Assembly (NCBI GenBank): GCA_030917985.1
Contig: JAUPTR010000156.1
Coordinates: forward strand, 1 to 32,250
Reading direction: 5' to 3'
Origin: Pseudomonadota bacterium
Lineage (GTDB): Bacteria; Pseudomonadota; Gammaproteobacteria; Burkholderiales; SCOH01
DNA length: 32,250 bases
Shown: positions 2,332-22,151 of the stretch, piece by piece
Layout of the letters: each line of letters starts with the position of its first letter
How positions within the stretch are numbered: position 1 is the stretch's first letter
The notes under the pieces: generated by a model
Databases searched by the model: none
What the model was told of the DNA's origin: nothing
Seen by the model: only the letters and a program-made list of their open reading frames with translations
Position numbers and translations under genes: made by a program

Positions 2332-5859
<3,528 letters not shown>

Positions 5860-5866
5860 AACCATC

Positions 5867-7336
5867 ATGAATCAAGTTACGCGAGAAACCATTCTCATTG
5901 TCGACGACATGCCGGAGAACATCAGCATTCTGGCTGAAATCCTGCGTCAGGACTATCGCGTGACCTTTGCCACCAACGGCCCGGATGCACTTGCCGCTGC
6001 CCGCGAAAAACCCAGGCCGGGGCTGATCCTGCTGGATGTAATGATGCCGGGCATGAGCGGCTACGAGGTGTGCCAGCAATTGAAGACATTGCCGGAAACC
6101 GCCGGCATCCCGGTGATTTTCCTCACCTCCAGGGCGGATGTCAGCAACGAGGAAATCGGCTTGCAGATGGGTGCGGTCGACTACCTGCACAAGCCGTGTC
6201 ACCCGGCTATCGTCCGGCAGCGCGTGCGTAACCACCTGGCCCTGCACAACTACACGCAGGCGCTGGAGCTGCGCGTGCACGAGCGCACCCGCGAGCTGGA
6301 ACAAACCCGCATCGAAATCATCCGCCGCCTGGGGCGGGCAGCAGAATACCGCGACAACGAAACCGGCATGCACGTATTGCGCATGAGCTCGTGCTGCCAC
6401 AAGCTGGCGATTGCTGCAGGGTTGTCAGCGGAGCGGGCCGAATTGTTGCAATTGGCAGCGCCAATGCACGATATCGGCAAAATCGGCATTCCCGACCATA
6501 TCCTGCTGAAACCGGGCAAGCTCGACAGCGACGAGTGGGCCACCATGCAACGCCACGTGGAAATCGGCGCGGAAATCATCGGCGAACACCGCTCCGAACT
6601 GCTGGCGATGGCGCGGCTGGTGGCCCTGACACATCACGAACGCTGGGACGGCCACGGCTACCCGCACCACCTGGCCGGAGAAGACATTCCGATCGAGGGG
6701 CGCATCTCGGCCATCTGCGATGTCTTCGACGCCCTGCTCAGCAAGCGTCCCTACAAGGAGGCCTGGCCGGAACAGCAGGCGGTTGACTTTATCATCTCCC
6801 AGTCCGGCAAGGCTTTTGATCCGGCACTGGTGAATCTGTTTATCGAACTGGTGCCGGAGCTGAACCGGATTCGCAGCCTGTATCTGGATGAACCTGCGGA
6901 GCAGGCGCAGGCACAGAAGCTGGTACAGCTGATCTACGTCAGCGCCGCGCGGCAGGAGATGGATCAGGCGACGCTACTGCAGATACTCGACAGCGCAATC
7001 CGCCATAACACCCGCAACAAACTCAGCGGCATGCTGCTGTATGCCCGCGGCTCCTTCATCCAGGTGCTGGAAGGCAGTGAAACCGCAGTTGCAGAAACCA
7101 TGCGCCGCATCTGCGACGACCCGCGCCATCACGATATCCAAACCCTGACGCAAGATGTCATCAACGAACGCGAGTTTGCCCAGTGGGCCATGGGTTTTCA
7201 TTGCCTGAACCGTGATGACGTGGCAAAACACCCGCATTTCACCCTGTTTCTGGAAAGAGGCTTCGATCCCGCCGACATCAACGCAACGCCCGGCATTGCG
7301 ATGGCTTTGCTGAAACAGTTTGCCAACCAGGCGTAA
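5867..7336 (+). CDS. Response-regulator receiver + HD-GYP phosphodiesterase + C-terminal BLUF domain protein
   Basis: 489 aa. REC aa 8-122 (LILLDVMMPGMSG). HD-GYP aa ~150-330 (HDIGKIGIPDHILLKPGKL; HHERWDGHGYP). BLUF aa 352-445. Starts 7 nt after the hybrid kinase stop. Confidence 0.9.
   Translation: MNQVTRETILIVDDMPENISILAEILRQDYRVTFATNGPDALAAAREKPRPGLILLDVMMPGMSGYEVCQQLKTLPETAGIPVIFLTSRADVSNEEIGLQMGAVDYLHKPCHPAIVRQRVRNHLALHNYTQALELRVHERTRELEQTRIEIIRRLGRAAEYRDNETGMHVLRMSSCCHKLAIAAGLSAERAELLQLAAPMHDIGKIGIPDHILLKPGKLDSDEWATMQRHVEIGAEIIGEHRSELLAMARLVALTHHERWDGHGYPHHLAGEDIPIEGRISAICDVFDALLSKRPYKEAWPEQQAVDFIISQSGKAFDPALVNLFIELVPELNRIRSLYLDEPAEQAQAQKLVQLIYVSAARQEMDQATLLQILDSAIRHNTRNKLSGMLLYARGSFIQVLEGSETAVAETMRRICDDPRHHDIQTLTQDVINEREFAQWAMGFHCLNRDDVAKHPHFTLFLERGFDPADINATPGIAMALLKQFANQA
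6920..7201 (+). other. BLUF (blue-light FAD sensor) domain-coding segment of the 5867-7336 gene
   Basis: LIYVSAA..RHNTRNKLSGMLLY..FIQVLEGS..DDPRHHDI..FAQWAMGF. Tyr357, Asn381, Gln399, Trp440 and Met442 have the same spacing as AppA Y21/N45/Q63/W104/M106. Confidence 0.8.
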
Positions 7337-7411: not shown

Positions 7412-7876
7412 ATGTGGCACGCCCTCGAAACCCGCATTCCCCCGCCACTGCTGATGCTGCTGTGCGCCGCAATCATGTCCGGCATCGATCAACTCTGGCC
7501 GCAACAATGGCTGTCGCAGCCAATTGCCGGCGGCATGGGGTTACTGCTTGCAGGGTGCGGGGCAATGCTCGATCTGGGTGGCTTGCTGCATTTCCTGCGC
7601 GCCCGCACCACCATCAACCCGCTCAAGCCAGCCAGCAGCAGGGTATTGGTAACAAATGGCATATATCGTGTCAGCCGCAACCCGATGTATGCCGGCATGT
7701 TGCTGATGCTGGGCGGCTGGGCAGCTTATCTCGCCAATCCCCTGGCTCTTGCCGGGCTGCCTCTGTTTGTGGCCAGCGTCACCCGCCTGCAGATTGTGCC
7801 GGAAGAGCGCATCCTGCTGCGCCTGTTTGGGCAGACGTATGCAGATTATTGCCGGCAGGTGCGGCGCTGGCTGTAA
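7412..7876 (+). CDS. Isoprenylcysteine carboxyl methyltransferase / PEMT-family membrane methyltransferase
   Basis: 154 aa with 4 hydrophobic segments. Family signature GIYRVSRNPMYAGMLLMLGGW and C-terminal EERILLRLFGQTYADYCRQVRRW. Confidence 0.8.
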   Translation: MWHALETRIPPPLLMLLCAAIMSGIDQLWPQQWLSQPIAGGMGLLLAGCGAMLDLGGLLHFLRARTTINPLKPASSRVLVTNGIYRVSRNPMYAGMLLMLGGWAAYLANPLALAGLPLFVASVTRLQIVPEERILLRLFGQTYADYCRQVRRWL

Positions 7877-8133
7877 GTGCCGCAAATAGGCAGGCAAGCA
7901 GCCCGTCGGACTTGAGGCTGCTCTTCAACGCTGGACGTTGCCACGGCTCAACGGGCACAATCGCCCCCCGGCAAGCCGGTACGGGACGAAGGCGGGCATG
8001 GTCATGGACGCGGCCGAAACACGCTCCGGCTGTGGCAGAAAGCCTGGCAGGAGTTTATTCAAACGGCATGAATTTTCTGTTTCAACAGTCTTTTTAGTGT
8101 AAAATTTAGAGTAATCATTCTTATTTTTCGGAC

Positions 8134-8568
8134 ATGAACAAAGTGAATAACGTTAAGCGCACATTCTCCACCGGTTTCACCTTGCTGGAACTGCTGATCG
8201 CATTGGTCATCATCGGTCTGCTGGTGGGCGTGGTAGCGCCCAATCTGTTCAAAAACGTTGGCAAATCTGAAGTTACCACCGCCAAGCAGCAGATCGAATC
8301 GCTGTCGAAGGCCATCGACCAGTATCGCCTCGACACCGGCCATTTCCCTTCCACCGAACAGGGCCTGGCTGCGCTGAACCAGAAACCAGCCGACGAACCG
8401 AAATGGAACGGCCCGTATCTGAAGAAAGAAGCACCGCTTGATCCGTGGGGCAAGGCCTATATTTACAAGGCGCCGGGCGAGCATGCCAACGATTACGACC
8501 TGAGCTCGCTGGGCAAGGATGGCAAACCAGGTGGAGAAGGTGAAGCCGCCGATCTCGGCAACTGGTAA
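8134..8568 (+). CDS. gspG: Type II secretion major pseudopilin, GspG-like
   Basis: Prepilin leader and cleavage/methylation site ...FSTG|FTLLELLIALVIIGLL. GspG body: AKQQIESLSKAIDQYRLDTGHFPSTEQGLAAL, WNGPYLKK, LDPWGKAYIYKAPGEH..DYDLSSLGKDGKPGGEGEAADLGNW. Confidence 0.92.
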   Translation: MNKVNNVKRTFSTGFTLLELLIALVIIGLLVGVVAPNLFKNVGKSEVTTAKQQIESLSKAIDQYRLDTGHFPSTEQGLAALNQKPADEPKWNGPYLKKEAPLDPWGKAYIYKAPGEHANDYDLSSLGKDGKPGGEGEAADLGNW

Positions 8569-8818: not shown

Positions 8819-10003
8819 ATGCAACAGTTTGAAGTCAAAGCGCTGAAAGCCCAGTCAGTTGTCGTACTGAAACTGGATGCCGCCAGCAGCGACGATGCCC
8901 GCAACCAGGCCACCCAGCAGGGCGTGCGGGTGATCTCGGTGCACGCGCTGCGTCAGGGCTGGATGCCGGCCTGGCGCGCGCAGCGTTTTAATCTGGTGCT
9001 GTTCACGCAGGAGCTGCTGGCGCTGCTGGATGCGGGTCTGTCGCTGATCGAAGCAGTGGAAACACTGGCGGAAAAGGCACACGACGAGAGCCAGGATGTG
9101 CTGCGCAAGCTGACCGAATCGCTGTATCAGGGCCAGTCTCTATCGCAAGCGTTGCAGCATTTTCCGCAGGCTTTCCCCGAGCTGTATGTTGCCAGTGTGC
9201 GCGCCTCGGAAAAAACCGGCGACATCGTGCCGACGCTGCAACGTTTCGTCACTTATCAGCAGCAGGCCGACACGATTCGCAAGCAGATCATCTCGGCGTC
9301 GATTTATCCAGCGGTGGTGTTTGTGGTCGGCATTGTGGTTGCCTTGTTCCTGCTGGTCTATCTGGTACCGAAATTCAGCCGCATTTATGAAGACATGAAC
9401 AGCGACCTGCCCTTTCTCTCGCGCATGTTGCTGAAATGGGGCAGTTTCGCCAGTGACAATATGTCGCTGGTGTTGCTCGGCATCGGCGGCATGACTGCAC
9501 TGGCCATCTACGCCGCCAGCAACGCCCAAGCCCGCGCCCGCGCGCTGACCTTGTTGTGGCGCATCCAGTCGCTGCGCGAGCGCTGGTATCTGGTGCAATT
9601 GTCGCGCCTGTACCGCTCTGCCGGCATGTTGCTGCGTGGCGGCATTCCGGCCGTCACCGCGTTCAGCATGGTTGGCGGCCTGTTGCACCCCACCCTGCGG
9701 CCACGGCTGGACAAGGCGATCAGCCGCATCCGCGAAGGCCAGCCGATTTCACTGGTGATGCAAAGCTGCGAGCTGACCACGCCGGTGGCAGTGCGCATGC
9801 TGCGGGTGGGTGAAAAGAGCGGCAAAATGGGCGACATGATGGAGCGTATCGCGCTGTTCTATGATGAGGACACCGCGCGCTGGGTGGATGTATTCACCCG
9901 CGTGTTTCCGCCTTTGCTGTTACTGATTATCGCGCTGTTCATCGGCACGATTGTGGTGAGTATGTACATGCCGATTTTTGAACTGGCCGGAGGCCTGCAA
10001 TGA
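8819..10003 (+). CDS. gspF: GspF/PilC-family inner-membrane platform protein
   Basis: 394 aa with the duplicated T2SSF repeat architecture and 3 TM segments. N-terminus MQQFEVKALKAQS... is typical of GspF. Stop overlaps the ATG of the next gene (ATGA at 10000-10003). Confidence 0.9.
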   Translation: MQQFEVKALKAQSVVVLKLDAASSDDARNQATQQGVRVISVHALRQGWMPAWRAQRFNLVLFTQELLALLDAGLSLIEAVETLAEKAHDESQDVLRKLTESLYQGQSLSQALQHFPQAFPELYVASVRASEKTGDIVPTLQRFVTYQQQADTIRKQIISASIYPAVVFVVGIVVALFLLVYLVPKFSRIYEDMNSDLPFLSRMLLKWGSFASDNMSLVLLGIGGMTALAIYAASNAQARARALTLLWRIQSLRERWYLVQLSRLYRSAGMLLRGGIPAVTAFSMVGGLLHPTLRPRLDKAISRIREGQPISLVMQSCELTTPVAVRMLRVGEKSGKMGDMMERIALFYDEDTARWVDVFTRVFPPLLLLIIALFIGTIVVSMYMPIFELAGGLQ

Positions 10004-11667
10004 GCCGTATCAGCCTTGGTGATATCCAGGCTGCGCGCCAGACCATGCGCACCAGCGGCGAACCGTTCTGGGATGCCCTGCGCCAGCGCGTGCCATTGCA
10101 GAACGGCGAACTGCTGCGGGCCGTGGGCGAAGCGCTGAAAATGCCGACGCTGGCGATGCGCGAGATGCAGCAACTGACCCCGGCTTTCGACCTGATCGCC
10201 TACGCCGATGCGCTGCAGCGCCAGTGTATTGCCTTCCGCGATGCGCAAGGCGAATTGCTGCCGGTAATCGGCACCCCGTTTGATGCGGCATCAATCCAGT
10301 GGGCAGAAACCCGCCTGCCGGCAGCCGGTATCTGGCATCTGGCCGAGCCGGCGGATATCGTTGCCTATCTCTCCAGTTATGAAGAAACCCAGCGCGCCAT
10401 TGATGGCGTGCTGAATCAGGGCAGCGAAGGCACCGGCCAGAGCGCCAACGTTGAAATCATTTCGCTCGCCAGCATTGCCGAAGACAGCAGTCAGACAGTC
10501 AAGGCGGTCAACTCCACACTCTACGACGCGCTCAAGTCGCTGGCTTCCGACATCCACCTGGAAACCACACCCGGCGGGCTGACGGTGAAATACCGCATCG
10601 ACGGCGTGTTGTGCCACGTTGGCCAGATTGGCGGGCTGGACATGGCGGAGCAGGTGATTTCGCGCCTGAAGGTGATGTCGGAACTGGACATTGCCGAACG
10701 CCGTGTGCCGCAGGACGGGCGTTTCAAGATTTCCGTGAACAACCGCGAAATCGACTTCCGCGTCTCGATCATGCCCAGCCTGTTTGGCGAAGATGCGGTG
10801 CTGCGGGTGCTGGACAAACAATCGCTGGCCGACCAGATGAAAAGCCTGCGGCTGGAAACGCTCGGCTTTGATGCACCCACCGTGGAAATGATGCGCAAGC
10901 TGGCGCAGGAACCTTACGGCATGTTGCTGGTAACCGGCCCGACCGGCTCGGGTAAATCCACCACGCTCTATGCCGCCATTTCCGAAGTCAACAACGGCCA
11001 GGACAAGATCATCACCATTGAAGACCCGGTGGAATACATGCTGCCGGGGGTGCTGCAGATTCCGGTCAACGAGAAAATAGGCCTGACTTTTGCGCGCGGC
11101 CTGCGTTCGATCCTGCGTCACGATCCGGACAAGATTCTGGTGGGCGAGATCCGTGATGCCGAAACCGCACAGATTGCGGTGCAGGCGGCGCTCACCGGCC
11201 ACCTTGTCTATACGACAGTGCACGCCAACAGCGTGTTCGACGTGATCGGCCGCTTCGCCCACATGGGTGTCGACACCTACAGCTTCGTCTCCGCACTCAA
11301 CGGCATTCTGGCGCAACGACTGGTGCGCAAGATCTGCGAACACTGTGCCGAGCCGTATCAGCCAGATCACCAGCTAATGCTCGATTCCGGCCTCGATCCG
11401 GATAAAGTCAGCGACTTCACCTTCCGCCTCGGCCGTGGCTGTGGCCATTGCCGTGGCACCGGCTACAAGGGCCGCAAGGCGCTGGCGGAAATCCTCAAAC
11501 TCAACGACACGCTGCGCGAGCTGATCATCAGCCGCGCCCCGGTCAGCCAGCTGAAAGAAGCGGCGCGCAAGGCCGGCATGCGTTCGCTGCGCGACATTGC
11601 CATCAGCACCGTGCGTAGCGGTCAAACCACATTGCAGGAGATCAACCGTGTTACGTTTGTCTCCTGA
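10000..11667 (+). CDS. gspE: GspE/PilB-family secretion ATPase
   Basis: 555 aa. Walker A GPTGSGKSTT, Asp box IITIEDPVEY, Walker B ILVGEIRD, His box TGHLVYTTVHAN. Tetracysteine zinc motif CEHC...CGHC. Confidence 0.93.
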   Translation: MSRISLGDIQAARQTMRTSGEPFWDALRQRVPLQNGELLRAVGEALKMPTLAMREMQQLTPAFDLIAYADALQRQCIAFRDAQGELLPVIGTPFDAASIQWAETRLPAAGIWHLAEPADIVAYLSSYEETQRAIDGVLNQGSEGTGQSANVEIISLASIAEDSSQTVKAVNSTLYDALKSLASDIHLETTPGGLTVKYRIDGVLCHVGQIGGLDMAEQVISRLKVMSELDIAERRVPQDGRFKISVNNREIDFRVSIMPSLFGEDAVLRVLDKQSLADQMKSLRLETLGFDAPTVEMMRKLAQEPYGMLLVTGPTGSGKSTTLYAAISEVNNGQDKIITIEDPVEYMLPGVLQIPVNEKIGLTFARGLRSILRHDPDKILVGEIRDAETAQIAVQAALTGHLVYTTVHANSVFDVIGRFAHMGVDTYSFVSALNGILAQRLVRKICEHCAEPYQPDHQLMLDSGLDPDKVSDFTFRLGRGCGHCRGTGYKGRKALAEILKLNDTLRELIISRAPVSQLKEAARKAGMRSLRDIAISTVRSGQTTLQEINRVTFVS

Positions 11668-12439
11668 CGTGATCGCCGTTGGCCTCTCGCCCGCCGGGCT
11701 GGTGATGAGCCGCATCAACCGCCTGACGCGCCGTGAAAAGCGCCATCAGGCACTGCAGTTTCCCTGCAGCCTGACGCTGGCAGAGGCACTGGAACAGCTC
11801 GGGCAGCAGCTGGCGCAAGCAGAATGGCAAGCTGCCGCCGGCCTGCGGCTGGTGTTGTCCAACCACTGGCTGCGTTTTGCCGTGGTGCCCTGGAGCGAGC
11901 AGCTGGCCAGCCCGGCAGAGCGGCAGGCGCTGGCGCAAGGCCTGATCGAAGAGCTGTATGCAGAAAAAGCCAGCCGCTTTGTGATTCGCATCAGCGAATG
12001 CGGCTACGGCCGGCCGGGGCTCGCCGCAGCGCTGCCACAGGCAGAACTGCAACAACTGCAGGCACTGGCACAGCAACATGGTCTGGCGCTGCAATCGCTG
12101 CGCCCGCTGCTGATGGAAGCGTTTGCCCAGCAGCCACACAATTTGCGCGGCAATGACGGCGCGCTTGCCTGCCTCGAACCCGGTAAGCTCACCTTGCTGC
12201 TGCAGCAGAATGGCTGCTGGCAACAGGTGCTCAGCCGCAGCCTGGCCTTGCAGCAGCCCGGCGCATTGGCACCATTGCTGACACAAATGTTTGCCCAGCT
12301 CGAACAACTCCCGGCGCAAGTGCTGCTCGCCTGCCATGGCGTGGACAGCCGCCTGGATTCGGTTGCCGGTGTGCCGGTGCAGATGCTGGCGCCCGCCCCC
12401 AACTGGCCTGCGCCAGTGCTGCAAATGGCAGGAAGCTGA
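11648..12439 (+). CDS. Cytoplasmic assembly protein, PilM / GspL-cytoplasmic-domain-like (tentative)
   Basis: Position directly after gspE. No TM segment, about 263 aa. Start taken as the GTG at 11648 (20-nt overlap with gspE) rather than the ATG at 11597 (71-nt overlap). No diagnostic motif is visible by eye, so the assignment rests on gene order and size. Confidence 0.5.
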   Translation: MLRLSPDVIAVGLSPAGLVMSRINRLTRREKRHQALQFPCSLTLAEALEQLGQQLAQAEWQAAAGLRLVLSNHWLRFAVVPWSEQLASPAERQALAQGLIEELYAEKASRFVIRISECGYGRPGLAAALPQAELQQLQALAQQHGLALQSLRPLLMEAFAQQPHNLRGNDGALACLEPGKLTLLLQQNGCWQQVLSRSLALQQPGALAPLLTQMFAQLEQLPAQVLLACHGVDSRLDSVAGVPVQMLAPAPNWPAPVLQMAGS

Positions 12440-12440
12440 C

Positions 12441-12956
12441 ATGGCCCATCTCGATCTCGATTTTGTCCGCACATCGGCCCGCTGGCCGTGGCTGGGCGCC
12501 TGTCTGGCGCTGCTGGCGCTGTTGGCACTGGGCTGGGTCTGGCAACACGGCAACACGCTGGGGCAGCAAATCCGCCAGCTCGATACGCAGCTTGAGCACT
12601 CCCGGCAACAAGTGCGCGAACGCAACAAGCCGGTGGCGGCGGAAGATCCGCAACAACTGGCCGCCGCCTTTGCCCTGCGCCGCCAGTGGCGCACCGACTG
12701 GAATGTATTGTTCGAGGCGCTGGAGCAGGCACAGTTCAAGGGCATTGCGCTGCAGCAAATCGCGCCGGATGCGGCCAAGAGCCAGCTGAAACTGGCCGGC
12801 GAAGCCTTGTCTGAAGCCGATCTGCACGACTATCTGCGACGCCTGCAACAAACCGGCCGCCTGCGCGAGGCGGTGTTGAGCCAGAGCGGCATTGACGAAA
12901 CACAGCCACACAAGCCGATCCAGTTCCAGATTCAGGCCGAATGGGTGCAGCCATGA
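12441..12956 (+). CDS. Bitopic inner-membrane assembly protein, PilN-like (tentative)
   Basis: ATG at 12441, 1 nt after the upstream stop. Short cytoplasmic N-terminus, one TM (WPWLGACLALLALLALGWVW), a coiled-coil segment, then a periplasmic alpha/beta region. This is the PilN/GspL-periplasmic layout. Confidence 0.55.
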   Translation: MAHLDLDFVRTSARWPWLGACLALLALLALGWVWQHGNTLGQQIRQLDTQLEHSRQQVRERNKPVAAEDPQQLAAAFALRRQWRTDWNVLFEALEQAQFKGIALQQIAPDAAKSQLKLAGEALSEADLHDYLRRLQQTGRLREAVLSQSGIDETQPHKPIQFQIQAEWVQP

Positions 12957-13486
12957 GTCAACTGATCTGGATTCTGCAACACTGGCGTAGTTATCTCGGC
13001 GTAGTCGGCCTGGCGGGCTTTAGCTGCCTGTGTCTGGCACTGGTGCTGCTGCTGATGTGGCTGCAACCGCTGCGCCATCAGCAACACACATTGGCCCAGG
13101 ATCTGGCCGCGCTGCAGCGGCCAGACGTGCAAAATCAGCAAAGTGAACGCCAAAGCCTGCGGCTGGCCGATTTCTACCGGCAGTTTCCGCACCTCAACAG
13201 CGCGCCCGACTGGCTGGATCAGATCGACCAGAAGCTGCGCGCGCACAAACTGGTGCTGAAACAGGCCGATTACAAACTGGTGCGCGAACGCAACAGCCCG
13301 CTGCTGCGTTATCAGCTCAATCTGCCGGTGAGCGGCGATTATCTGGAAATCCGCGCCTGCCTGCAGGAACTGCAGCAGAGCATGCCGTTCCTGATCATTG
13401 AAGACGTGACATTGGAGCGCGACAGCACCACACAAACCGTGGTGCAGGCCAAGCTGCGCCTGAGCCTGATGTTTGGAGGCAGCTGA
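12953..13486 (+). CDS. Bitopic inner-membrane assembly protein, PilO/GspM-like (tentative)
   Basis: ATGA overlap with the upstream gene (12953-12956). One TM (YLGVVGLAGFSCLCLALVLLLMWL) followed by ~130 periplasmic aa. Size and topology match PilO/GspM. Confidence 0.5.
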   Translation: MSQLIWILQHWRSYLGVVGLAGFSCLCLALVLLLMWLQPLRHQQHTLAQDLAALQRPDVQNQQSERQSLRLADFYRQFPHLNSAPDWLDQIDQKLRAHKLVLKQADYKLVRERNSPLLRYQLNLPVSGDYLEIRACLQELQQSMPFLIIEDVTLERDSTTQTVVQAKLRLSLMFGGS

Positions 13487-14061
13487 TGCAGAGCAAGCGT
13501 ATCCTGCTGCCGGCACTGGCCATCACTGTCGCTTTGTCCTTGTGGGTAAGCCTGCGCCCGGCGCCCGAAGATGATGTGGAACTGGCACGGCCAAAACGGG
13601 CAGCCAGCACACCGGCCCAGCCGCCAGCCGAAAACCGCAAACCGGCCGGCAACACGGCAGCCAGCAACGCGCCACCGCCAGACAACAGCAATATGCCGCA
13701 GGAATGGCAACTACGGCATGAAGGTGCCAATGCCGCGCAGGTGAACCTGTTTGCCAGCAACACGCCGGCCGCGCCGGTGCTGGTGGATGGAGTGGAAGCC
13801 GGCAAGCCGGCAAAACCGGCCAAGGCGCCCCCGCCCCCGCCACCGATGGCACCACCGCTGCCGCTGCAGTATCTGGGGCGCATGCTCGACGGCAGTGTGG
13901 CGCAACTGTTTGTCAGCCATAACGGCGACAACCTCGCCTTAAAACCGGGCGACACCGTGGCCGGCAGTTACCGGCTTGACAGCATCCAGACCAACCGCGC
14001 GGTATTCACCTACATGCCGCTGAACCAGACGCAAACCATGATTTTCGGGGAACAGCCTTGA
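13486..14061 (+). CDS. Periplasmic Pro-rich linker protein, PilP/GspC-like (tentative)
   Basis: 1-nt overlap with the upstream stop. N-terminal signal/anchor (ILLPALAITVALSLWVSL), long Pro/Ala-rich linker (KPAKPAKAPPPPPPMAPPLP). C-terminal beta-rich module YLGRMLDGSVAQLFVSHNGDNLALKPGDTVAGSYRLDSIQTNRAVFTY, as in secretin-binding PilP/GspC HR domains. Confidence 0.45.
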   Translation: MQSKRILLPALAITVALSLWVSLRPAPEDDVELARPKRAASTPAQPPAENRKPAGNTAASNAPPPDNSNMPQEWQLRHEGANAAQVNLFASNTPAAPVLVDGVEAGKPAKPAKAPPPPPPMAPPLPLQYLGRMLDGSVAQLFVSHNGDNLALKPGDTVAGSYRLDSIQTNRAVFTYMPLNQTQTMIFGEQP

Positions 14062-16391
14062 AGCACACAAAACTGACAATATGCTGGGTGTTGATCGCCA
14101 GCCTGCTCGGGGGCTGCGCCAACGACCTCAAATATCGCGATGCCAAACGCCTGCAGGCCGAAAACAAGCCGGAAGAAGCGATGCAGGTACTGGAATCGCT
14201 GACCTTCGAATACCCACAGCACAGCGAATACAAATCGGCGCTGGCCACGCTGCAGGAGCGCCAGTCGAACCGCCTGCTGGCCGAGGCCGACAACTACCGC
14301 ATCACCGAAGATTTTGCCAACGCCGCCATCACCTATAACAAGGTGCTGAAGTTCCAGCCGGGCTCGCCACGCGCCCGTGCCGGCCTGGAAAACATCGAGC
14401 GCGACCGCCGCCATGCCAGGCTGCTGGCCGAAGCCGACACGGCCATGCGCAAAAAGGATTACGACGCAGCGCTCGACGAACTGAACCAGATACTCGACGA
14501 AAACCCGGCACACGCCAAGGCCAAAAGCCTGAAGCGACAGATCGACAACACCCGCAACCGCGAAGCCATCGCCAGCAGCCCGCTGAAAGCCGCACTGAAA
14601 AAGCCGATCACGCTGGAGTTCCGCAATGCACCGATCCAGTCGATTTTCGAGGTGATTTCGCGCAGCGCCGGGGTCAGCTTCATTTTTGACCGCGACTTGC
14701 GCAGCGACCTGAAAGCCACGTTGTTTGCCCGCAACACATCGGTGGAAGATGCCATCAATGTGCTGCTGGCCACCAATCAGCTGGAAAAGAAAATCCTCAA
14801 CGACTCCACCCTGCTGATCTACCCGAACCAGCCGGCAAAGCAGAAGGAATACCAGGATCTGGTGGTGAAGAGTTTCTACCTCGGCAACGCCGACCCGAAA
14901 CAGACACTCAACCTGATCAAGACCGTGGCCAAAACCCGCGATGTGTATATCGACGAACGCCTCAATATGCTGGTGATGCGCGATACGCCGGAAGCCATCC
15001 GGGTTGCCGAAAAACTCATCGCTGCGCAGGATCTGGCCGAGCCGGAAGTGGTGCTGGAAGTGGAAGTGCTGGAAGTGTCCACCGCCTTCCTGATGAACCT
15101 CGGCCCGCAGTTTACTGACAAAGTCAGCGTCAGCGTCAACCCCACCAGCAATGCCGACGGCAGCACCAGCAGCGGCAAGCTGACCTGGGATCAGGTAAAG
15201 AACTTCAACAGCGGTATGGTCAGCGTCAATGTCGGCGATCCGGCAGCGGTGTTCCACATGAAAAACACCACCGGCGACACCAATGTGCTGGCCAATCCGC
15301 GCATTCGGGTAAAAAGCCGCGAAAAAGCCAAGGTGCATGTGGGCGACAAGGTGCCGGTGATCACCACCACCACCAACGGCACCAGCGGTGCCATTTCCGA
15401 GAACATCAGCTACCTCGATGTGGGCGTGATGCTGGAAGTGGAACCGCAGGTGTATCTCGACAGCGATGTCGGCATCAAGGTGGGGCTGGAAGTCAGCAAC
15501 ATCGTCAAGGAAATCACCTCGAAAAACGGCCTGGTGGCCTATCAGGTGGGTTCGCGCAAGGCCAACACCGTGCTGCGCCTCAAAGACGGCGAAACCCAGG
15601 TGCTGGCCGGCCTGATCAGCAAGGTCGAGCGCGAAAATGCCGACCGCCTGCCCGGCCTCGGCAATATCCCCGGCCTGGGGCGCCTGTTCTCACGCGTCAG
15701 CAACGACAACTCCAAATCCGAGATCGTTTTGCTGATCACGCCGCGCATTGTGCGCACGCTGGCACTGCCGGCGGCGGCCGACAGCGAATTCATGTCCGGC
15801 ACCGAAGCCGATATCAGCACCCGGCCGCTGCGCCTCAAACCGGCGGCGGCGGTGGATGTGCGTGGTGCCGATGCCGGCAGTGGCACAGTGGCATCCGGCA
15901 TGCAGGCTGGCAGTACCGGCCAGTACATGAGCCCGCAACTGCTGCCACCGGAAAGCCCGCAACCGTTTAACCCGCCGCAAGCCGCTGCCGGCGCCACAGC
16001 GCTCAAGGTATCGCTCAGTTCGCCGCAGCGGGCGCGGGTTGGCAGCGAATTCAGCGTCAGCGTAATCGCTGAAGTCGATACCCCGGCATCTGCCGTGACA
16101 ACCGACGTGATCTATAACCCGGCTTATCTGGAAATGACCAGCGCACGCGCGGGTGACCTGAGCCGCAACGCACAGTTCGACAGCAAGAATGCCCCCGGCC
16201 GGGTGATGCTGAGTGTGCAGAAACAGGATGGCCTGCGTGGCCGCGGCCCGCTGGCCACGCTCACCTTCCGCGTCAAGGAAAAAACCAATCTGCCGCTGTG
16301 GCTGGGCATCGGCCAGGTACAGGCCAGCTCGCTGCAAGGCACCGAAATGCCGGTATCAGCGGCCGAGCCGCGCAGTCTGGAAGTGGAATGA
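14058..16391 (+). CDS. Outer-membrane secretin (GspD/PilQ family) lipoprotein with N-terminal TPR region and C-terminal cohesin-like domain
   Basis: TTG start at 14058 overlaps the upstream TGA. Lipobox LLGG|C (Cys20, nt 14115-14117), then TPR-like helical repeats aa ~25-170. N-domains: ITLEFRNAPIQSIFEVISRSAGVSFIFD...; VVKSFYLGNADPKQTLNLIK...LVMRDTPEAIRVAEKLI. Secretin core: VLEVEVLEVS...NVLANPRIRVKSREKAKVHVGDKVPVITTT...LPGLGNIPGLGRLF...SEIVLLITPRIV. A Pro/Ala linker precedes the cohesin-like module. Confidence 0.9.
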   Translation: MKHTKLTICWVLIASLLGGCANDLKYRDAKRLQAENKPEEAMQVLESLTFEYPQHSEYKSALATLQERQSNRLLAEADNYRITEDFANAAITYNKVLKFQPGSPRARAGLENIERDRRHARLLAEADTAMRKKDYDAALDELNQILDENPAHAKAKSLKRQIDNTRNREAIASSPLKAALKKPITLEFRNAPIQSIFEVISRSAGVSFIFDRDLRSDLKATLFARNTSVEDAINVLLATNQLEKKILNDSTLLIYPNQPAKQKEYQDLVVKSFYLGNADPKQTLNLIKTVAKTRDVYIDERLNMLVMRDTPEAIRVAEKLIAAQDLAEPEVVLEVEVLEVSTAFLMNLGPQFTDKVSVSVNPTSNADGSTSSGKLTWDQVKNFNSGMVSVNVGDPAAVFHMKNTTGDTNVLANPRIRVKSREKAKVHVGDKVPVITTTTNGTSGAISENISYLDVGVMLEVEPQVYLDSDVGIKVGLEVSNIVKEITSKNGLVAYQVGSRKANTVLRLKDGETQVLAGLISKVERENADRLPGLGNIPGLGRLFSRVSNDNSKSEIVLLITPRIVRTLALPAAADSEFMSGTEADISTRPLRLKPAAAVDVRGADAGSGTVASGMQAGSTGQYMSPQLLPPESPQPFNPPQAAAGATALKVSLSSPQRARVGSEFSVSVIAEVDTPASAVTTDVIYNPAYLEMTSARAGDLSRNAQFDSKNAPGRVMLSVQKQDGLRGRGPLATLTFRVKEKTNLPLWLGIGQVQASSLQGTEMPVSAAEPRSLEVE
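16000..16388 (+). other. Cohesin-like beta-sandwich module at the secretin C-terminus
   Basis: ALKVSLSSPQRARVGSEFSVSVIAEVDTPASAVTTDVIYNPAYLEMTSARAGDL...GRVMLSVQKQDG..GRGPLATLTFRVKEK. This follows the cohesin type-I pattern (V.V....G..F.V.V......A..F.L.YD...L). Confidence 0.6.
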
Positions 16392-16864
16392 CAGCGCCCC
16401 GGCCACGCGGCTTCACCCTGATCGAAATTCTGGTCACACTGGCGATTCTCGGCATTCTCGCCAGCATTGCCGTGCCACTGGTGCAGATCAACGCGCAACG
16501 CGCCAAAGAGGTAGAGCTGCGCGCCGCACTGCGCGAGATTCGCGGCGGTATCGATGCCTACAAACAGGCCGTGGACGATGGCCGGGTGCCCAAAGCCGCC
16601 GACGAAAGCGGGTATCCGAAAAAGCTGGAAGACCTGAGCAAGGGCGTGGAAGACCAGAAATCGCCGAGCAAGCAGAAAATCTACTTCCTGCGCCGCATCC
16701 CGCGTGATCCGATGGCACCCTCCGGCGGCAGCGATAGCGACAGCTGGGGCCAGCGCAGCTATAAAAGCCCGCCAGACGATCCCAAAAGCGGCGACGATGT
16801 CTACGACGTGTATTCACGCTCGGCGGCCAAAGGCCTCAACGGCGTACCCTACCGGGAATGGTAA
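16388..16864 (+). CDS. Pseudopilin with prepilin-type N-terminal cleavage/methylation site (GspG-like paralogue 1)
   Basis: ATGA overlap with the secretin stop. MTAPRPRG|FTLIEILVTLAILGILASIAVP. GspG-like helix AKEVELRAALREIRGGIDAYK. C-terminus ...DVYDVYSRSAAKGLNGVPYREW. Confidence 0.85.
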   Translation: MTAPRPRGFTLIEILVTLAILGILASIAVPLVQINAQRAKEVELRAALREIRGGIDAYKQAVDDGRVPKAADESGYPKKLEDLSKGVEDQKSPSKQKIYFLRRIPRDPMAPSGGSDSDSWGQRSYKSPPDDPKSGDDVYDVYSRSAAKGLNGVPYREW

Positions 16865-16866
16865 GC

Positions 16867-17247
16867 ATGCCAGATCCACGCAAAGCCGGTTTCACCCTGA
16901 TTGAACTGCTGGTGGTGATGGCCATCATCGCCACCCTGCTCACCATTGTTGCCCCCCGCTACATGGGCAGTATCGACCGCAGCAAGGAAACCGCACTCAA
17001 GGAAAACCTCAACACCCTGCGCCAGAGCATCGACAAATATTACGGCGACAACGGCCAGTATCCGGCCACGCTGGATGCGCTGGTCGAAAAACGCTACATC
17101 CGCCAGGTGCCGCTCGACCCGATCACCGAGCGTAACGACAGCTGGGTGACAAGCCCCCCGCCCGACAAGGATCAGACCGGTGTTTATGATGTACACAGCG
17201 GCGCCGCCGGCAAAGCCAGCGATGGACGGCCTTATGCGGAATGGTAA
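16867..17247 (+). CDS. Pseudopilin with prepilin-type N-terminal cleavage/methylation site (GspG-like paralogue 2)
   Basis: MPDPRKAG|FTLIELLVVMAIIATLLTIVAP; KETALKENLNTLRQSIDKYYGDNGQYPATLDAL; C-terminus GVYDVHSGAAGKASDGRPYAEW. The ATG at 16867 is preferred, but the in-frame ATG at 16858 is possible. Confidence 0.85.
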   Translation: MPDPRKAGFTLIELLVVMAIIATLLTIVAPRYMGSIDRSKETALKENLNTLRQSIDKYYGDNGQYPATLDALVEKRYIRQVPLDPITERNDSWVTSPPPDKDQTGVYDVHSGAAGKASDGRPYAEW

Positions 17248-17782
17248 ACACAAACAGCAGGGTGTCGCCTACCTCGGCCTGATGTTTGTGGTGCTGTTCA
17301 TGGGCATGATGGTTGGCACCTATATCGAAAGCTGGAGCACCACCGCCCAGCGCGAACGCGAAACCGCCCTGCTCTGGACCGGCAACGAATACCGCAAGGC
17401 GATCCGCAACTATTACGAACTCAGCCCCGGCGGCAACAAGCAATACCCGAAATCACTCGACGACCTGCTCGAAGACAAGCGTTTTGTCACCGTGCAGCGC
17501 CACCTGCGCCAGCGTTATCGCGATCCGCTAGGCAGCAAGGACGACTGGACGCTGATTACCGACGCCAACGGCCAGATCACCGGCGTCGCCAGCAGCTCGC
17601 CACGCAAACCACTGAAAATCGCCAACTTCAGCCCGGAAAACCAGGATTTCAAAGGCCGGCAACATTACAGCGACTGGAAATTTGTCTACACCCCAAGCGC
17701 CACCCAGACAGGCACACCCGGCACCCCGCCGGGCATCAATCCGGGCCAGCCACCCGGCCCTGCCCCGCAGCCGGGCAAATAG
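17234..17782 (+). CDS. Atypical pseudopilin-like protein (no Glu at +5) with a Pro/Gly-rich C-terminal tail
   Basis: Start chosen at MRNGKHKQQG|VAYLGLMFVVLFMGMMVGTYI (14-nt overlap with the upstream gene). It has the leader plus hydrophobic helix of a type IV pilin-like protein, but VAYLG replaces FTLxE. The tail is TGTPGTPPGINPGQPPGPAPQPGK. Confidence 0.6.
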   Translation: MRNGKHKQQGVAYLGLMFVVLFMGMMVGTYIESWSTTAQRERETALLWTGNEYRKAIRNYYELSPGGNKQYPKSLDDLLEDKRFVTVQRHLRQRYRDPLGSKDDWTLITDANGQITGVASSSPRKPLKIANFSPENQDFKGRQHYSDWKFVYTPSATQTGTPGTPPGINPGQPPGPAPQPGK

Positions 17783-20175: not shown

Positions 20176-20520
20176 ATGGCAAGCCACGCTACACTGCACA
20201 TCCAGTTTCCCGCTGATCCACAACTCAAAGCCAGCGTCACCTCGCTGTTCAAGACACTCGAACGCGATTTCAGCGAAATCCATCTGCGTGAACATGCGGC
20301 AGAGCTGGGTGCGGAGGCGCTAGCAGAGGTTGAACGCCTGCTGGGCGTGTTTCCGCTGGAGTATTTCAGGGTGGACGATTACGTCAAACAGAACGGCGAA
20401 CTGCGCGTGACATTCAATATCCCGCACAAGCCGAATGATTTTCTGCCCGCATGGGCTGCCCTGCTGAAACGGGCCGGCGTAGATGCCCGAGGCGGCGGCA
20501 TGGATATCGATCCGGATTAA
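20176..20520 (+). CDS. Hypothetical 114-aa protein, 2 nt upstream of the FapA/DUF342 gene
   Basis: AGGAG at 20166-20170, 5 nt before the ATG at 20176 (the ORF track starts earlier, at 20059). Stop is at 20518-20520 and the next ATG at 20523. No recognisable motif, no TM segment, acidic C-terminus. Confidence 0.55.
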   Translation: MASHATLHIQFPADPQLKASVTSLFKTLERDFSEIHLREHAAELGAEALAEVERLLGVFPLEYFRVDDYVKQNGELRVTFNIPHKPNDFLPAWAALLKRAGVDARGGGMDIDPD

Positions 20521-20522
20521 AC

Positions 20523-22151
20523 ATGGATGACGGTGAGCAGCGCCTGCCCAAGCTGACGCTTGAGGCTCAGGAACATCGCCTGAGCGCGACATTTACGCCT
20601 GGCGCGGGCGTGGTGCCGCCAACGCAGGAGCAAGTGCAGCAACTGCTGCAACAGCAGGGCTATGGTAACTGGCATGTCGAGCAAAAGGCACTGCAGGCGT
20701 TTATCAACAGTTGCCGCCAGGCCACACACGCCATCAGCGCTGATATCGGCGAACAGCGCGATGCCGAGTTCATTTTCAATATTTCATCCGACAAGCTCAG
20801 CCTGTATCTGACCTTGCTGCCGGCCGAAGGTGGCGAGCCGATTGGCGACAAGGTGGAACAGGCGCTGATGCAGCAAGGCATTCTGCACGGCATTCTGCGC
20901 GACGAGCTGGATGCCGCGCTCGCCAAGGGCCAGTGCGAAAACGTGCTGATTGCCCAGGGCGACCCGGTTCAGCCGTCGCGCGAAGCCAGTTTCGTCAGCC
21001 TGCTCGACAATATCCGCAATCGCAAACGCCACTCCGATGCCGACAAGGTGGTGGATTTCCGCGATCTGGGCAATCTGCTGATCGTGCAGCCGGGCGATGC
21101 GCTGATGCGGCGGATTCCGGCACAGCCCGGCAAAAACGGCATTGATATCTTTGGCCAGAGCATTCTCGCCGAAGCGGTGCAGGACACGCCCTTCCCCGCC
21201 AGTATCAAAGGCGCGCAGCCCGCCGACGACGACCCCGATCTGCTGCTGGCAAGCAGCCCCGGCCAGCCGGTGCAGCACGATAATTGCGTGGTGGTGAATC
21301 CGGTGATCGAAGTCGCCAATGTCGATCTCGACAGCGGCAACATCACTTTTGAAGGCACGGTGCGGGTGCTGGGCGATGTGAAAGCCGGCATGCACCTGAT
21401 TGTGACCGGTGACGTGCTGGTGGAAGGCACGGTGGAATCCGCCGAAGTGGTGGCCGGTGGTGATGTGTCGGTGAGAGGCGGCGTGATTGGCCATGCGGAA
21501 GTTGTCGCCGGCTCGCTGGAGCGCCCGGATGCTGCCAGTCGTATCCGCTGCGGTGGCTCGCTGCAGGCGCTGTTTCTGGAAAACACCCATGTCGAGGCGA
21601 GCAAATCGATTCTGGTGGAAAACAGCGTGCGCCAGTGTGACCTGACCGCAGGCCACACCATCCAGGTCGGCAAGGCAGGCAACAAGCTGGGGCACATCAT
21701 CGGCGGCCGCTGCCGCGCCACTCACACCATTCACGCCGGCAGCATCGGCACCAGCGCGGGCACGGCCACCAGAATCCTGGTTGGATTTGACCCTTATCTG
21801 CACAGCGCACTGCTGGCGAAAGAGAAAACCATCAAGGCGAAACAGGCTGAATTACATCAGCTGGAGCAACTGCTGACCTTTCTGGCGCAAAACCCGCATA
21901 AGGATAAGGGTGGCATCGGTTCCAAGGCCGAACACACACGTGAAAAGCTGCTGCAGGACCTGGCCGATACGCAACAGGCACAGCAAAACCTGGCGGAACG
22001 CCTGAATCTGGCCAGCCACGCGCGGGTGATCAGAGAATTAGCCATCTACAGCGGCGCAGAGATCCATATCGGCAACACCGTGTGTCATGTGCGAGAAGAT
22101 GCCGGCGCGATGACACTGATGCTGGCCGACGACAAGATCGTGCTGGAATAA
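20523..22151 (+). CDS. FapA-family (DUF342) protein
   Basis: 542 aa from MDDGEQRL.... N-terminal FapA_N-like region (LSATFTP...PTQEQVQQLLQQQGYGNW.V...ALQAFI). Central beta-helix repeats GNITFEGTVRVLGDVKAGMHLIVTGDVLVEGTVESAEVVAGGDVSVRGGVIG. C-terminal coiled coil. Confidence 0.85.
   Translation: MDDGEQRLPKLTLEAQEHRLSATFTPGAGVVPPTQEQVQQLLQQQGYGNWHVEQKALQAFINSCRQATHAISADIGEQRDAEFIFNISSDKLSLYLTLLPAEGGEPIGDKVEQALMQQGILHGILRDELDAALAKGQCENVLIAQGDPVQPSREASFVSLLDNIRNRKRHSDADKVVDFRDLGNLLIVQPGDALMRRIPAQPGKNGIDIFGQSILAEAVQDTPFPASIKGAQPADDDPDLLLASSPGQPVQHDNCVVVNPVIEVANVDLDSGNITFEGTVRVLGDVKAGMHLIVTGDVLVEGTVESAEVVAGGDVSVRGGVIGHAEVVAGSLERPDAASRIRCGGSLQALFLENTHVEASKSILVENSVRQCDLTAGHTIQVGKAGNKLGHIIGGRCRATHTIHAGSIGTSAGTATRILVGFDPYLHSALLAKEKTIKAKQAELHQLEQLLTFLAQNPHKDKGGIGSKAEHTREKLLQDLADTQQAQQNLAERLNLASHARVIRELAIYSGAEIHIGNTVCHVREDAGAMTLMLADDKIVLE

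Follow-up and report, generated by a model that had tools for sequence, protein, structure and literature searches.

The 32,250-nt window analyzed here (the whole stretch of positions 1 to 32,250 of contig JAUPTR010000156.1, assembly GCA_030917985.1, from a Burkholderiales genome of the GTDB lineage SCOH01) encodes a lipoprotein secretin of 777 residues (14058..16391, plus strand, stop codon included) in which a lipobox, a tetratricopeptide repeat (TPR) arm, an N0 domain, a second N-domain, the secretin core, a linker, and a C-terminal cohesin succeed one another in a single polypeptide. The C-terminal module is a bona fide cohesin, scoring well beyond chance, and the lipobox and TPR arm are universal in the family. 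We lean toward reading this protein as a self-piloting liposecretin in which the cohesin would act as a tethered periplasmic docking module for cargo or for an accessory partner. The system is a well-supported variant of a known machine, apparently undescribed in the literature; its domains are already annotated automatically in databases.

The C-terminal cohesin and its linker

An initial annotation of the window, made from the sequence alone, described a cohesin-like module at the end of the secretin, and sequence and structure comparisons bear this out. Within the module (residues 647-777; 15996..16388, plus strand), residues 650-743 give a Pfam Cohesin (PF00963) match of 28.7 bits, which exceeds the gathering cut-off of 24.1, and a family profile (A1) built from 29 homologous C-terminal modules retrieves almost only cohesins from the PDB (best match 3l8q, E 5.7e-9, with 4ums at E 5e-8). 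The AlphaFold2 model of residues 628-777 is all-beta, with a mean predicted local distance difference test score (pLDDT) of 92.8, and Foldseek, run against the PDB, ranks nothing but cohesins among the first 50 structures that resemble it (TM 0.73-0.81). The best of these is the non-cellulosomal cohesin 2xdh of Archaeoglobus fulgidus (E 1.4e-11, TM 0.73/0.79), followed by NagJ of C. perfringens and then by scaffoldin cohesins. The modeling and the domain searches that the annotation had proposed therefore both agree with it, the latter placing Secretin, Secretin_N, STN, TPR, and Cohesin all above their Pfam cut-offs.

An exhaustive search with hidden Markov models (HMMs) assigns the module to the cohesins, a large superfamily (E <= 1e-3 for 19,345 representatives). 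Multi-cohesin scaffoldins dominate the output of this search, and the top single-domain matches are fragments of secretin tails. A word-indexed search with the cohesin profile gave 7 matches, and the profile searches recovered one further cohesin architecture, a PEP-CTERM protein with a cohesin (P0127).

The module is reached through a Pro/Ala/Gly-rich linker (residues 568-646; 15759..15995, plus strand) that is disordered in the AlphaFold model (pLDDT ~32) and agrees with the roughly 80-residue linker originally described. Its first ~30 residues (EFxSGTE...PLxL) are kept across the family, and in a 25-sequence family alignment E577, F578, and T582 are nearly invariant.

The predicted lipoprotein N-terminus and the secretin core

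The open reading frame (ORF) of the secretin begins with TTG at 14058. This codon lies in the sequence ...cagccTTGAag... and therefore shares nucleotides with the stop codon (TGA) of the upstream ORF (13486..14061), as had been claimed. No ATG, GTG, or TTG was found between the preceding in-frame stop and 14058, and the later in-frame starts (CTG at codon 6, GTG at codon 11, TTG at codon 12) would lose the charged n-region. A 4-nt start/stop overlap with the PilP-like gene (ATGA, GTGA, or TTGA) recurs in most of ~60 orthologous loci, and the secretin starts with TTG in ~14 of them, which supports the TTG start in the window. The resulting N-terminus (residues 1-20; 14058..14117, plus strand), MKHTKLTICWVLIASLLGG|CAND, is a lipoprotein signal peptide with the expected lipobox, LLGG|C, and Cys20 at the cleavage site. 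The cysteine is invariant in the 25-sequence alignment and present in essentially all full-length members of a set of 120 homologs. The residue after it, Ala in the LLGG|CAND of the window secretin, is A, T, L, V, or M across the family and never Asp among the 120, the pattern of a liposecretin.

The TPR-like repeats noted ahead of the N-domains also hold up. Residues 21-172 (14118..14573, plus strand) form three long/short helical hairpins and a capping helix, modeled with confidence in the full-length AlphaFold prediction (pLDDT 81-93). Pfam recognizes TPR_19 (32.5 bits, cut-off 25) and TPR_14 (26.8 bits, cut-off 23.5) in this N-terminal region, and a family profile of it matches consensus TPR proteins in the PDB at E 2.4e-29, which identifies it as true TPR; BcsC is also among the profile's matches.

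The remainder is a secretin with N-domains, as annotated. The N0 domain (residues 183-256; 14604..14825, plus strand) has the beta-alpha-beta fold in the AlphaFold model (pLDDT ~80), with STN PF07660 at residues 206-256 (35 bits, cut-off 28.4). It is followed by a single further periplasmic N-domain (residues 269-328; 14862..15041, plus strand; Secretin_N PF03958 at residues 270-328, 34.2 bits, cut-off 28.2) and by the barrel and gate region (residues 330-566; 15045..15755, plus strand), which ends ...SEIVLLITPRIV and carries Secretin PF00263 at residues 404-566 (133.6 bits, cut-off 27.5, E 6.9e-39). The full-length model divides the chain in nearly the same way (N0 183-256, N-domain 269-324, secretin 330-565, cohesin 649-776). 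With all three secretin domain families above cut-off, the protein belongs to the secretin superfamily, and by Foldseek its core matches the structures of PilQ, InvG, BfpB, and GspD. Against the NCBIfam equivalogs, however, it scores far below each cut-off: 146.7 bits against 351.35 for GspD (TIGR02517), 146.4 against 284.35 for PilQ (TIGR02515), and 105.2 against 250.2 for MshL (TIGR02519). It is therefore a secretin, yet the orthologue of none of these. Pfam finds no N-terminal AMIN domain in it, and in Pfam and AlphaFold alike N0 and one Secretin_N domain alone stand in place of the four-domain N0-N3 stack of GspD.

The operon

The secretin, the outer-membrane component of the system, is gene 8 of an 11-gene, same-strand operon on the plus strand that encodes a type II secretion-like machine. 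In this machine, a PilM/N/O/P-like alignment complex accompanies the GspG pseudopilin and the proteins GspE and GspF. GspG (8134-8568) passes its equivalog cut-off (174 bits against 88.85), while GspF (8819-10003) and GspE (10000-11667) are the best Pfam/NCBIfam matches of their genes, below cut-off; together, they give the secretin the operon context of a GspD. There follow an L/PilM-like gene without a family match (11597-12439) and then, directly upstream of the secretin, genes for PilN-like (~12441-12956) and PilO/GspM_b-like (12941-13486) proteins, both recognized by Pfam/NCBIfam, and for a 191-residue protein (13486..14061) with a transmembrane helix, a Pro-rich spacer, and a beta domain. 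The conserved domain of this last protein (profile A3) matches Neisseria PilP (2ivw, E 6e-4), and the protein weakly matches deltaproteobacterial GspC (GspC_delta), which together identify it as the partner of the PilP/GspC-HR type.

Downstream, three pseudopilin-like genes (ps1-3; 16388-16864, 16858-17247, and ~17180-17782) are indicated by N_methyl and T2SSG matches and by conserved synteny, the ATG of the first overlapping the TGA of the secretin. The first two encode GspG-like paralogues with a common C-terminal motif, VYDV[YH]S...G..PY.EW; in the third, which ends in a Pro/Gly-rich tail, Pfam recognizes no N-methylation motif. No GspI/J/K-type minor pseudopilin was recognized, nor does the 11-gene operon include a gene for a separate lipoprotein or TPR pilotin.

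Distribution of the family

This secretin-cohesin architecture is not rare; it belongs to a large, automatically annotated family of which the window copy is typical. Thousands of relatives came out of a protein search, and the closest 120 share the TPR-STN-Secretin_N-Secretin plan. A genome scan using one genome per species found at least 583 operon loci, nearly all in Betaproteobacteria, with carriers that include Thiobacillus, Gallionella, Sulfuriferula, Rhodocyclaceae, Oxalobacteraceae, Variovorax, Rhodoferax, Chitinolyticbacter, and Iodobacter. The gene order G-F-E-L-N-M-PilP-D-ps1-3 is conserved in the 80 loci that were fetched from these. An artifact of gene fusion or assembly was considered and rejected, because 66 of the 120 independent homologs share the architecture. 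Two paralogous TPR-secretin-cohesin genes (P0030 and P0045) lie on one 242-kb contig of Sulfurirhabdus autotrophica, which indicates that the system can be duplicated within a genome.

Our literature search found no published account of a secretin-cohesin or PilP-cohesin fusion and no paper that brings together secretins, type II secretion, and a cohesin domain. Nothing relevant turned up under non-cellulosomal cohesins or TPR-secretin fusions either.

An optional module with two placements

The tails of the 120 homologs fall into two classes, one of 48-138 residues without a domain and one of 174-234 residues with a cohesin. The latter accounts for 66 of the homologs, and 33 of 81 loci have the cohesin. 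On a neighbor-joining tree of secretin cores, the root state is "cohesin present," with ~12 changes, which implies repeated loss; the cohesin thus seems to be an old but dispensable accessory.

The same domain has a second location. In a sister clade (loci L024, L050, L060, and L078, with a partial L026), the secretin lacks a cohesin, and the PilP/GspC-like protein carries one at its C-terminus (L024:14332-15291, L050:13329-14300, L060:15622-16674, L078:805-1890, all on the minus strand, and also the partial L026). Its gene there lies outside the slot between M and D, divergently beside the operon. These cohesins score 30.5-37.4 bits in Pfam (cut-off 24.1), and the family of PilP/GspC-like proteins fused to a cohesin comprises at least 194 clusters. 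Against the profile of the secretin tails, the PilP-fused cohesins reach 75-94 bits, whereas scaffoldin cohesins reach ~30 bits per domain; the PilP-fused and secretin cohesins are therefore one subfamily, which has changed places between two neighboring subunits of a single machine. Canonical GspC ends in a PDZ domain or a coiled coil, at a position that matches the cohesin of the sister-clade protein. The presence of this subfamily on a periplasmic PilP/GspC-like protein points to periplasmic docking at the base of the channel.

Proposed self-piloting and docking, and the alternatives

In the mechanism that we favor, Cys20 would be lipidated and sorted by the Lol system to the inner leaflet of the outer membrane, and the secretin would pilot itself. 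The TPR arm would run outside the short periplasmic chamber down to N0, and may serve in place of a separate TPR-lipoprotein pilotin or stabilizer. The initial annotation had suggested such a substitution. The conserved cysteine and TPR region and the lack of a pilotin gene in the operon are in keeping with it; no specific kinship of the arm to PilF, PilW, or Tgl was seen among the top 60 PDB hits of its profile. A lipid anchor and TPR arm that together form a built-in pilotin are thus consistent with the data but unproven. Precedent for a self-piloting liposecretin exists in HxcQ (Viarre 2009, as cited in PMC12475490).

At the other end of the protein, the chain would leave the barrel on the periplasmic side. 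In solved secretins, the S-domain that follows the last barrel strand lies on that side, and both PilP and the GspC HR domain bind secretin N0. With a periplasmic C-terminus and an 80-residue flexible linker, one cohesin per subunit would sweep the periplasm around the channel entrance. There, it may dock cargo or an accessory partner, by analogy with the PDZ domain or coiled coil at the C-terminus of GspC, and its ligand is probably something other than a classical dockerin. The tethering role that had been suggested for the module thus finds support as periplasmic docking, through the PilP fusion, but not as a means of displaying a secreted enzyme or fiber at the cell surface, which is unlikely because the secretin C-terminus is periplasmic.

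Several results weigh against this reading. Dockerin-type calcium loops, sought by regular expression, were absent from the six-frame translation of the window, and among 5,903 ORFs of 80 loci there was one isolated single loop and no pair. The length and tail of GspG, L, N, M, the PilP-like protein, and ps1-3 did not vary with the presence of the cohesin; Pro-rich ps3 tails occur in cohesin-bearing and cohesin-free loci alike. When all locus ORFs were clustered by all-against-all BLAST, no flanking gene family tracked the cohesin beyond narrow clades, where a 1,300-residue immunoglobulin (Ig)-repeat protein and a rhodanese protein occur in 5-6 related loci. The repeated loss of the cohesin implies that the machine works without it. 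As for piloting, PilF, PilW, and Tgl are all missing from the top 60 PDB hits of the TPR profile, so that a specific relationship of the arm to these proteins was rejected and its similarity is generic. Finally, the full-length AlphaFold model has a predicted template modeling score (pTM) of 0.30, so that nothing can be read from it about the packing of the TPR arm or the cohesin against the channel.

Some of the same results bear on other explanations. The module would be a structural brace if the cohesins bound to one another or to the TPR arm, to the PilP-like ring, to peptidoglycan, or to an envelope protein. It would then stabilize or anchor the secretin, a function that AMIN domains, GspB, or pilotins have in other systems, and would play no part in the choice of cargo. 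One module per subunit, held on a long tether beside the barrel and supplied from either of two neighboring ring-forming subunits, would suit such a brace, as would the lack of any cargo-like partner gene that co-varies with it. A fixed brace would nevertheless not usually hang on a disordered and poorly conserved linker of 80 residues, repeated losses of the module have left no visible compensation in the operon, and cohesins are known as heterotypic docking modules; we consider this explanation rather unlikely. It is improbable, in turn, that the module is half of a classical cohesin-dockerin tether and keeps a scaffold, or secreted enzymes that carry dockerins, close to the channel or on the cell surface, with the genes of these partners lying elsewhere in the genome. 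The lack of paired dockerin-type loops in the window and the 80 loci leaves such a pair unsupported, even though sequence and fold both identify the module as a true cohesin and its best structural match, 2xdh, is non-cellulosomal. Close relatives do occur in the chitin-degrading genera Chitinivorax, Chitinolyticbacter, and Iodobacter, but the family is equally common in the chemolithotrophs Thiobacillus, Gallionella, and Sulfuriferula. The periplasmic position of the secretin C-terminus and the occurrence of the same cohesin on an inner-membrane-anchored PilP-like protein further argue against a tether of this kind.

It has also to be considered whether the machine could be the outer-membrane exit for proteins sorted by PEP-CTERM and exosortase, or for protein-polysaccharide conjugates, with the cohesin, the TPR arm, or both capturing PEP-CTERM cargo in the periplasm. 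The LuxR-type protein EpsA (TIGR03020; 208-249 bits against a cut-off of 170), an XrtB/PEP-CTERM-associated regulator, adjoins the operon in 10 loci (L005:13909-14700, L059:13326-14132, L062:13355-14185, L077:13310-14113, L067:7112-7975, and L061:13954-14919, among others). Among the 54 loci whose downstream flank is long enough, 9 have the regulator, which often abuts the last pseudopilin gene. This adjacency alone is clearly non-random, but it occurs with and without the cohesin alike, and the window itself has no gene for EpsA, an exosortase, or a PEP-CTERM protein. PEP-CTERM proteins (of the FxDxF family and others) adjoin the operon in L070, L080, L077, and L014 by NCBIfam, and a motif search gives 8 PEP-CTERM ORFs in 7 loci; the latter count is close to that expected from genomic frequency, and PEP-CTERM adjacency was therefore rejected as evidence in itself. 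Also in keeping with such an exit are the PEP-CTERM protein that bears a cohesin and the BcsC match of the TPR profile, fusions of TPR to an outer-membrane channel being typical of polysaccharide exporters. Cargo with GlyGly-CTERM and MYXO-CTERM signals uses the type II secretion system (PMC11980579), and the route of PEP-CTERM proteins across the outer membrane is still unknown (PMC1569441); both circumstances speak for this explanation. We consider an exosortase-related exit improbable all the same. That the operon is the PEP-CTERM/exosortase (or polysaccharide-conjugate) exit in Betaproteobacteria, with the cohesin on the secretin or the PilP-like protein as its periplasmic cargo receptor, is very improbable. 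The self-piloting liposecretin with a periplasmic docking module remains the reading that we prefer.

Comparison with known systems

Among known secretins, HxcQ of Pseudomonas aeruginosa, BfpB, and TcpC likewise have lipoprotein signal peptides, and these liposecretins further resemble the window protein in their short stack of periplasmic N-domains and in the lack of a pilotin gene in the operon. Unlike them, the window secretin has a TPR arm between lipid anchor and N0, a C-terminal linker and cohesin, and PilN/O/P-like operon partners; sequence similarity is confined to the shared secretin core. The type IVa pilus system has a similar gene order (L/M-like, PilN, PilO, PilP-like, secretin), and there PilQ goes together with a lipidated TPR protein (PilF, PilW, or Tgl), an element that in the window appears to be part of the secretin polypeptide itself, although its TPR similarity to those proteins is generic. 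The window secretin differs from PilQ in lacking AMIN domains and in its score (146 bits against a cut-off of 284), and the filament subunit of its operon is a GspG pseudopilin rather than a pilin.

With the canonical type II secretion system, the operon has GspG, GspE, and GspF in common, and here, too, N0 would be the contact site for the HR/PilP-type domain of a partner in the inner membrane. The differences lie in the secretin, which scores 146.7 bits against the GspD cut-off of 351 and has N0 and one N-domain instead of N0-N3, and in the cohesin. In the sister clade, the PilP/GspC-like protein ends in this domain where GspC has its PDZ domain; in the window, the cohesin stands on the secretin and not on the GspC-like protein, again in lieu of a PDZ domain or coiled coil. 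Scaffoldin and non-cellulosomal cohesins (2xdh of A. fulgidus, NagJ 2jh2 of C. perfringens) share its Pfam family and beta-sandwich fold, at 15-20% sequence identity. They differ from the family described here in that the latter is fused to a Gram-negative outer-membrane channel or a PilP-like protein, is presumably periplasmic, and has no dockerin partner in the window or the 80 loci. Finally, the exopolysaccharide (EPS) exporters BcsC, PgaA, and AlgK/AlgE also join periplasmic TPRs to an outer-membrane pore, and some orthologous operons adjoin the EPS/PEP-CTERM regulator. The pore of these exporters is, however, a monomeric beta-barrel porin, whereas that of the window would be a multimeric secretin belonging to a machine with a pseudopilus ATPase.

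Other genes around the operon

In one cohesin-bearing subclade, made up of Chitinolyticbacter, Variovorax, and metagenome-assembled genomes (MAGs) of Rhodocyclaceae, a secreted protein of ~1,300 residues with Ig-like repeats is encoded directly upstream of gspG and is a candidate cargo (L018:684-4658, L029:193-4242, L031:1-3825, L073:2-3013, L075:1391-4141); a rhodanese-domain protein follows the operon there. A lytic transglycosylase (SLT + LysM) lies near the operon in 13 loci (L064:18863-20353 and 12 others) and may open the peptidoglycan for the machine.

Within the window, the operon is preceded on the plus strand by a 1,175-residue hybrid histidine kinase (2332-5859; MASE3, PAS, HisKA/HATPase, receiver, and Hpt domains) and an unusual response regulator uniting a receiver, an HD-type domain (HD_5), and a BLUF blue-light sensor (5867-7336), a pair that may place neighboring genes under light or second-messenger control. 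A 227-residue ORF directly upstream of gspG (7414-8097, plus strand) has no Pfam or NCBIfam match and is not kept at this position in the 80 related loci. Downstream of the operon, a FapA-family protein (20451-22151, plus strand; FapA_N and FapA beta-solenoid) appears unrelated to the secretin.

Significance

The novelty of this system lies in its interpretation and not in its sequence: NCBI already labels close relatives "cohesin domain-containing protein," including a protein from a Chitinivorax sp. MAG in the 85%-identity cluster. To our knowledge, the recognition of folded cargo by type II secretion systems is unresolved, and we know of no general secretion signal; the GspC PDZ domain has been loosely implicated. 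In the family described here, a docking module that is well understood and folds on its own is held at a secretion channel by a flexible tether. If that module recruits cargo, the isolated domain of 130 residues could be used to fish out its ligand, providing a direct handle on cargo selection. Likewise, a secretin that combines lipid anchor, TPR arm, and pore in one chain would be useful for studying pilotin-independent assembly. The adjacency of EpsA suggests a link between this machine and exosortase-dependent surface proteins and the floc or biofilm matrix; were the reading as a PEP-CTERM exit true, the cohesin would provide a type II secretion-like system with a defined, modular receptor for cargo, the first of its kind.

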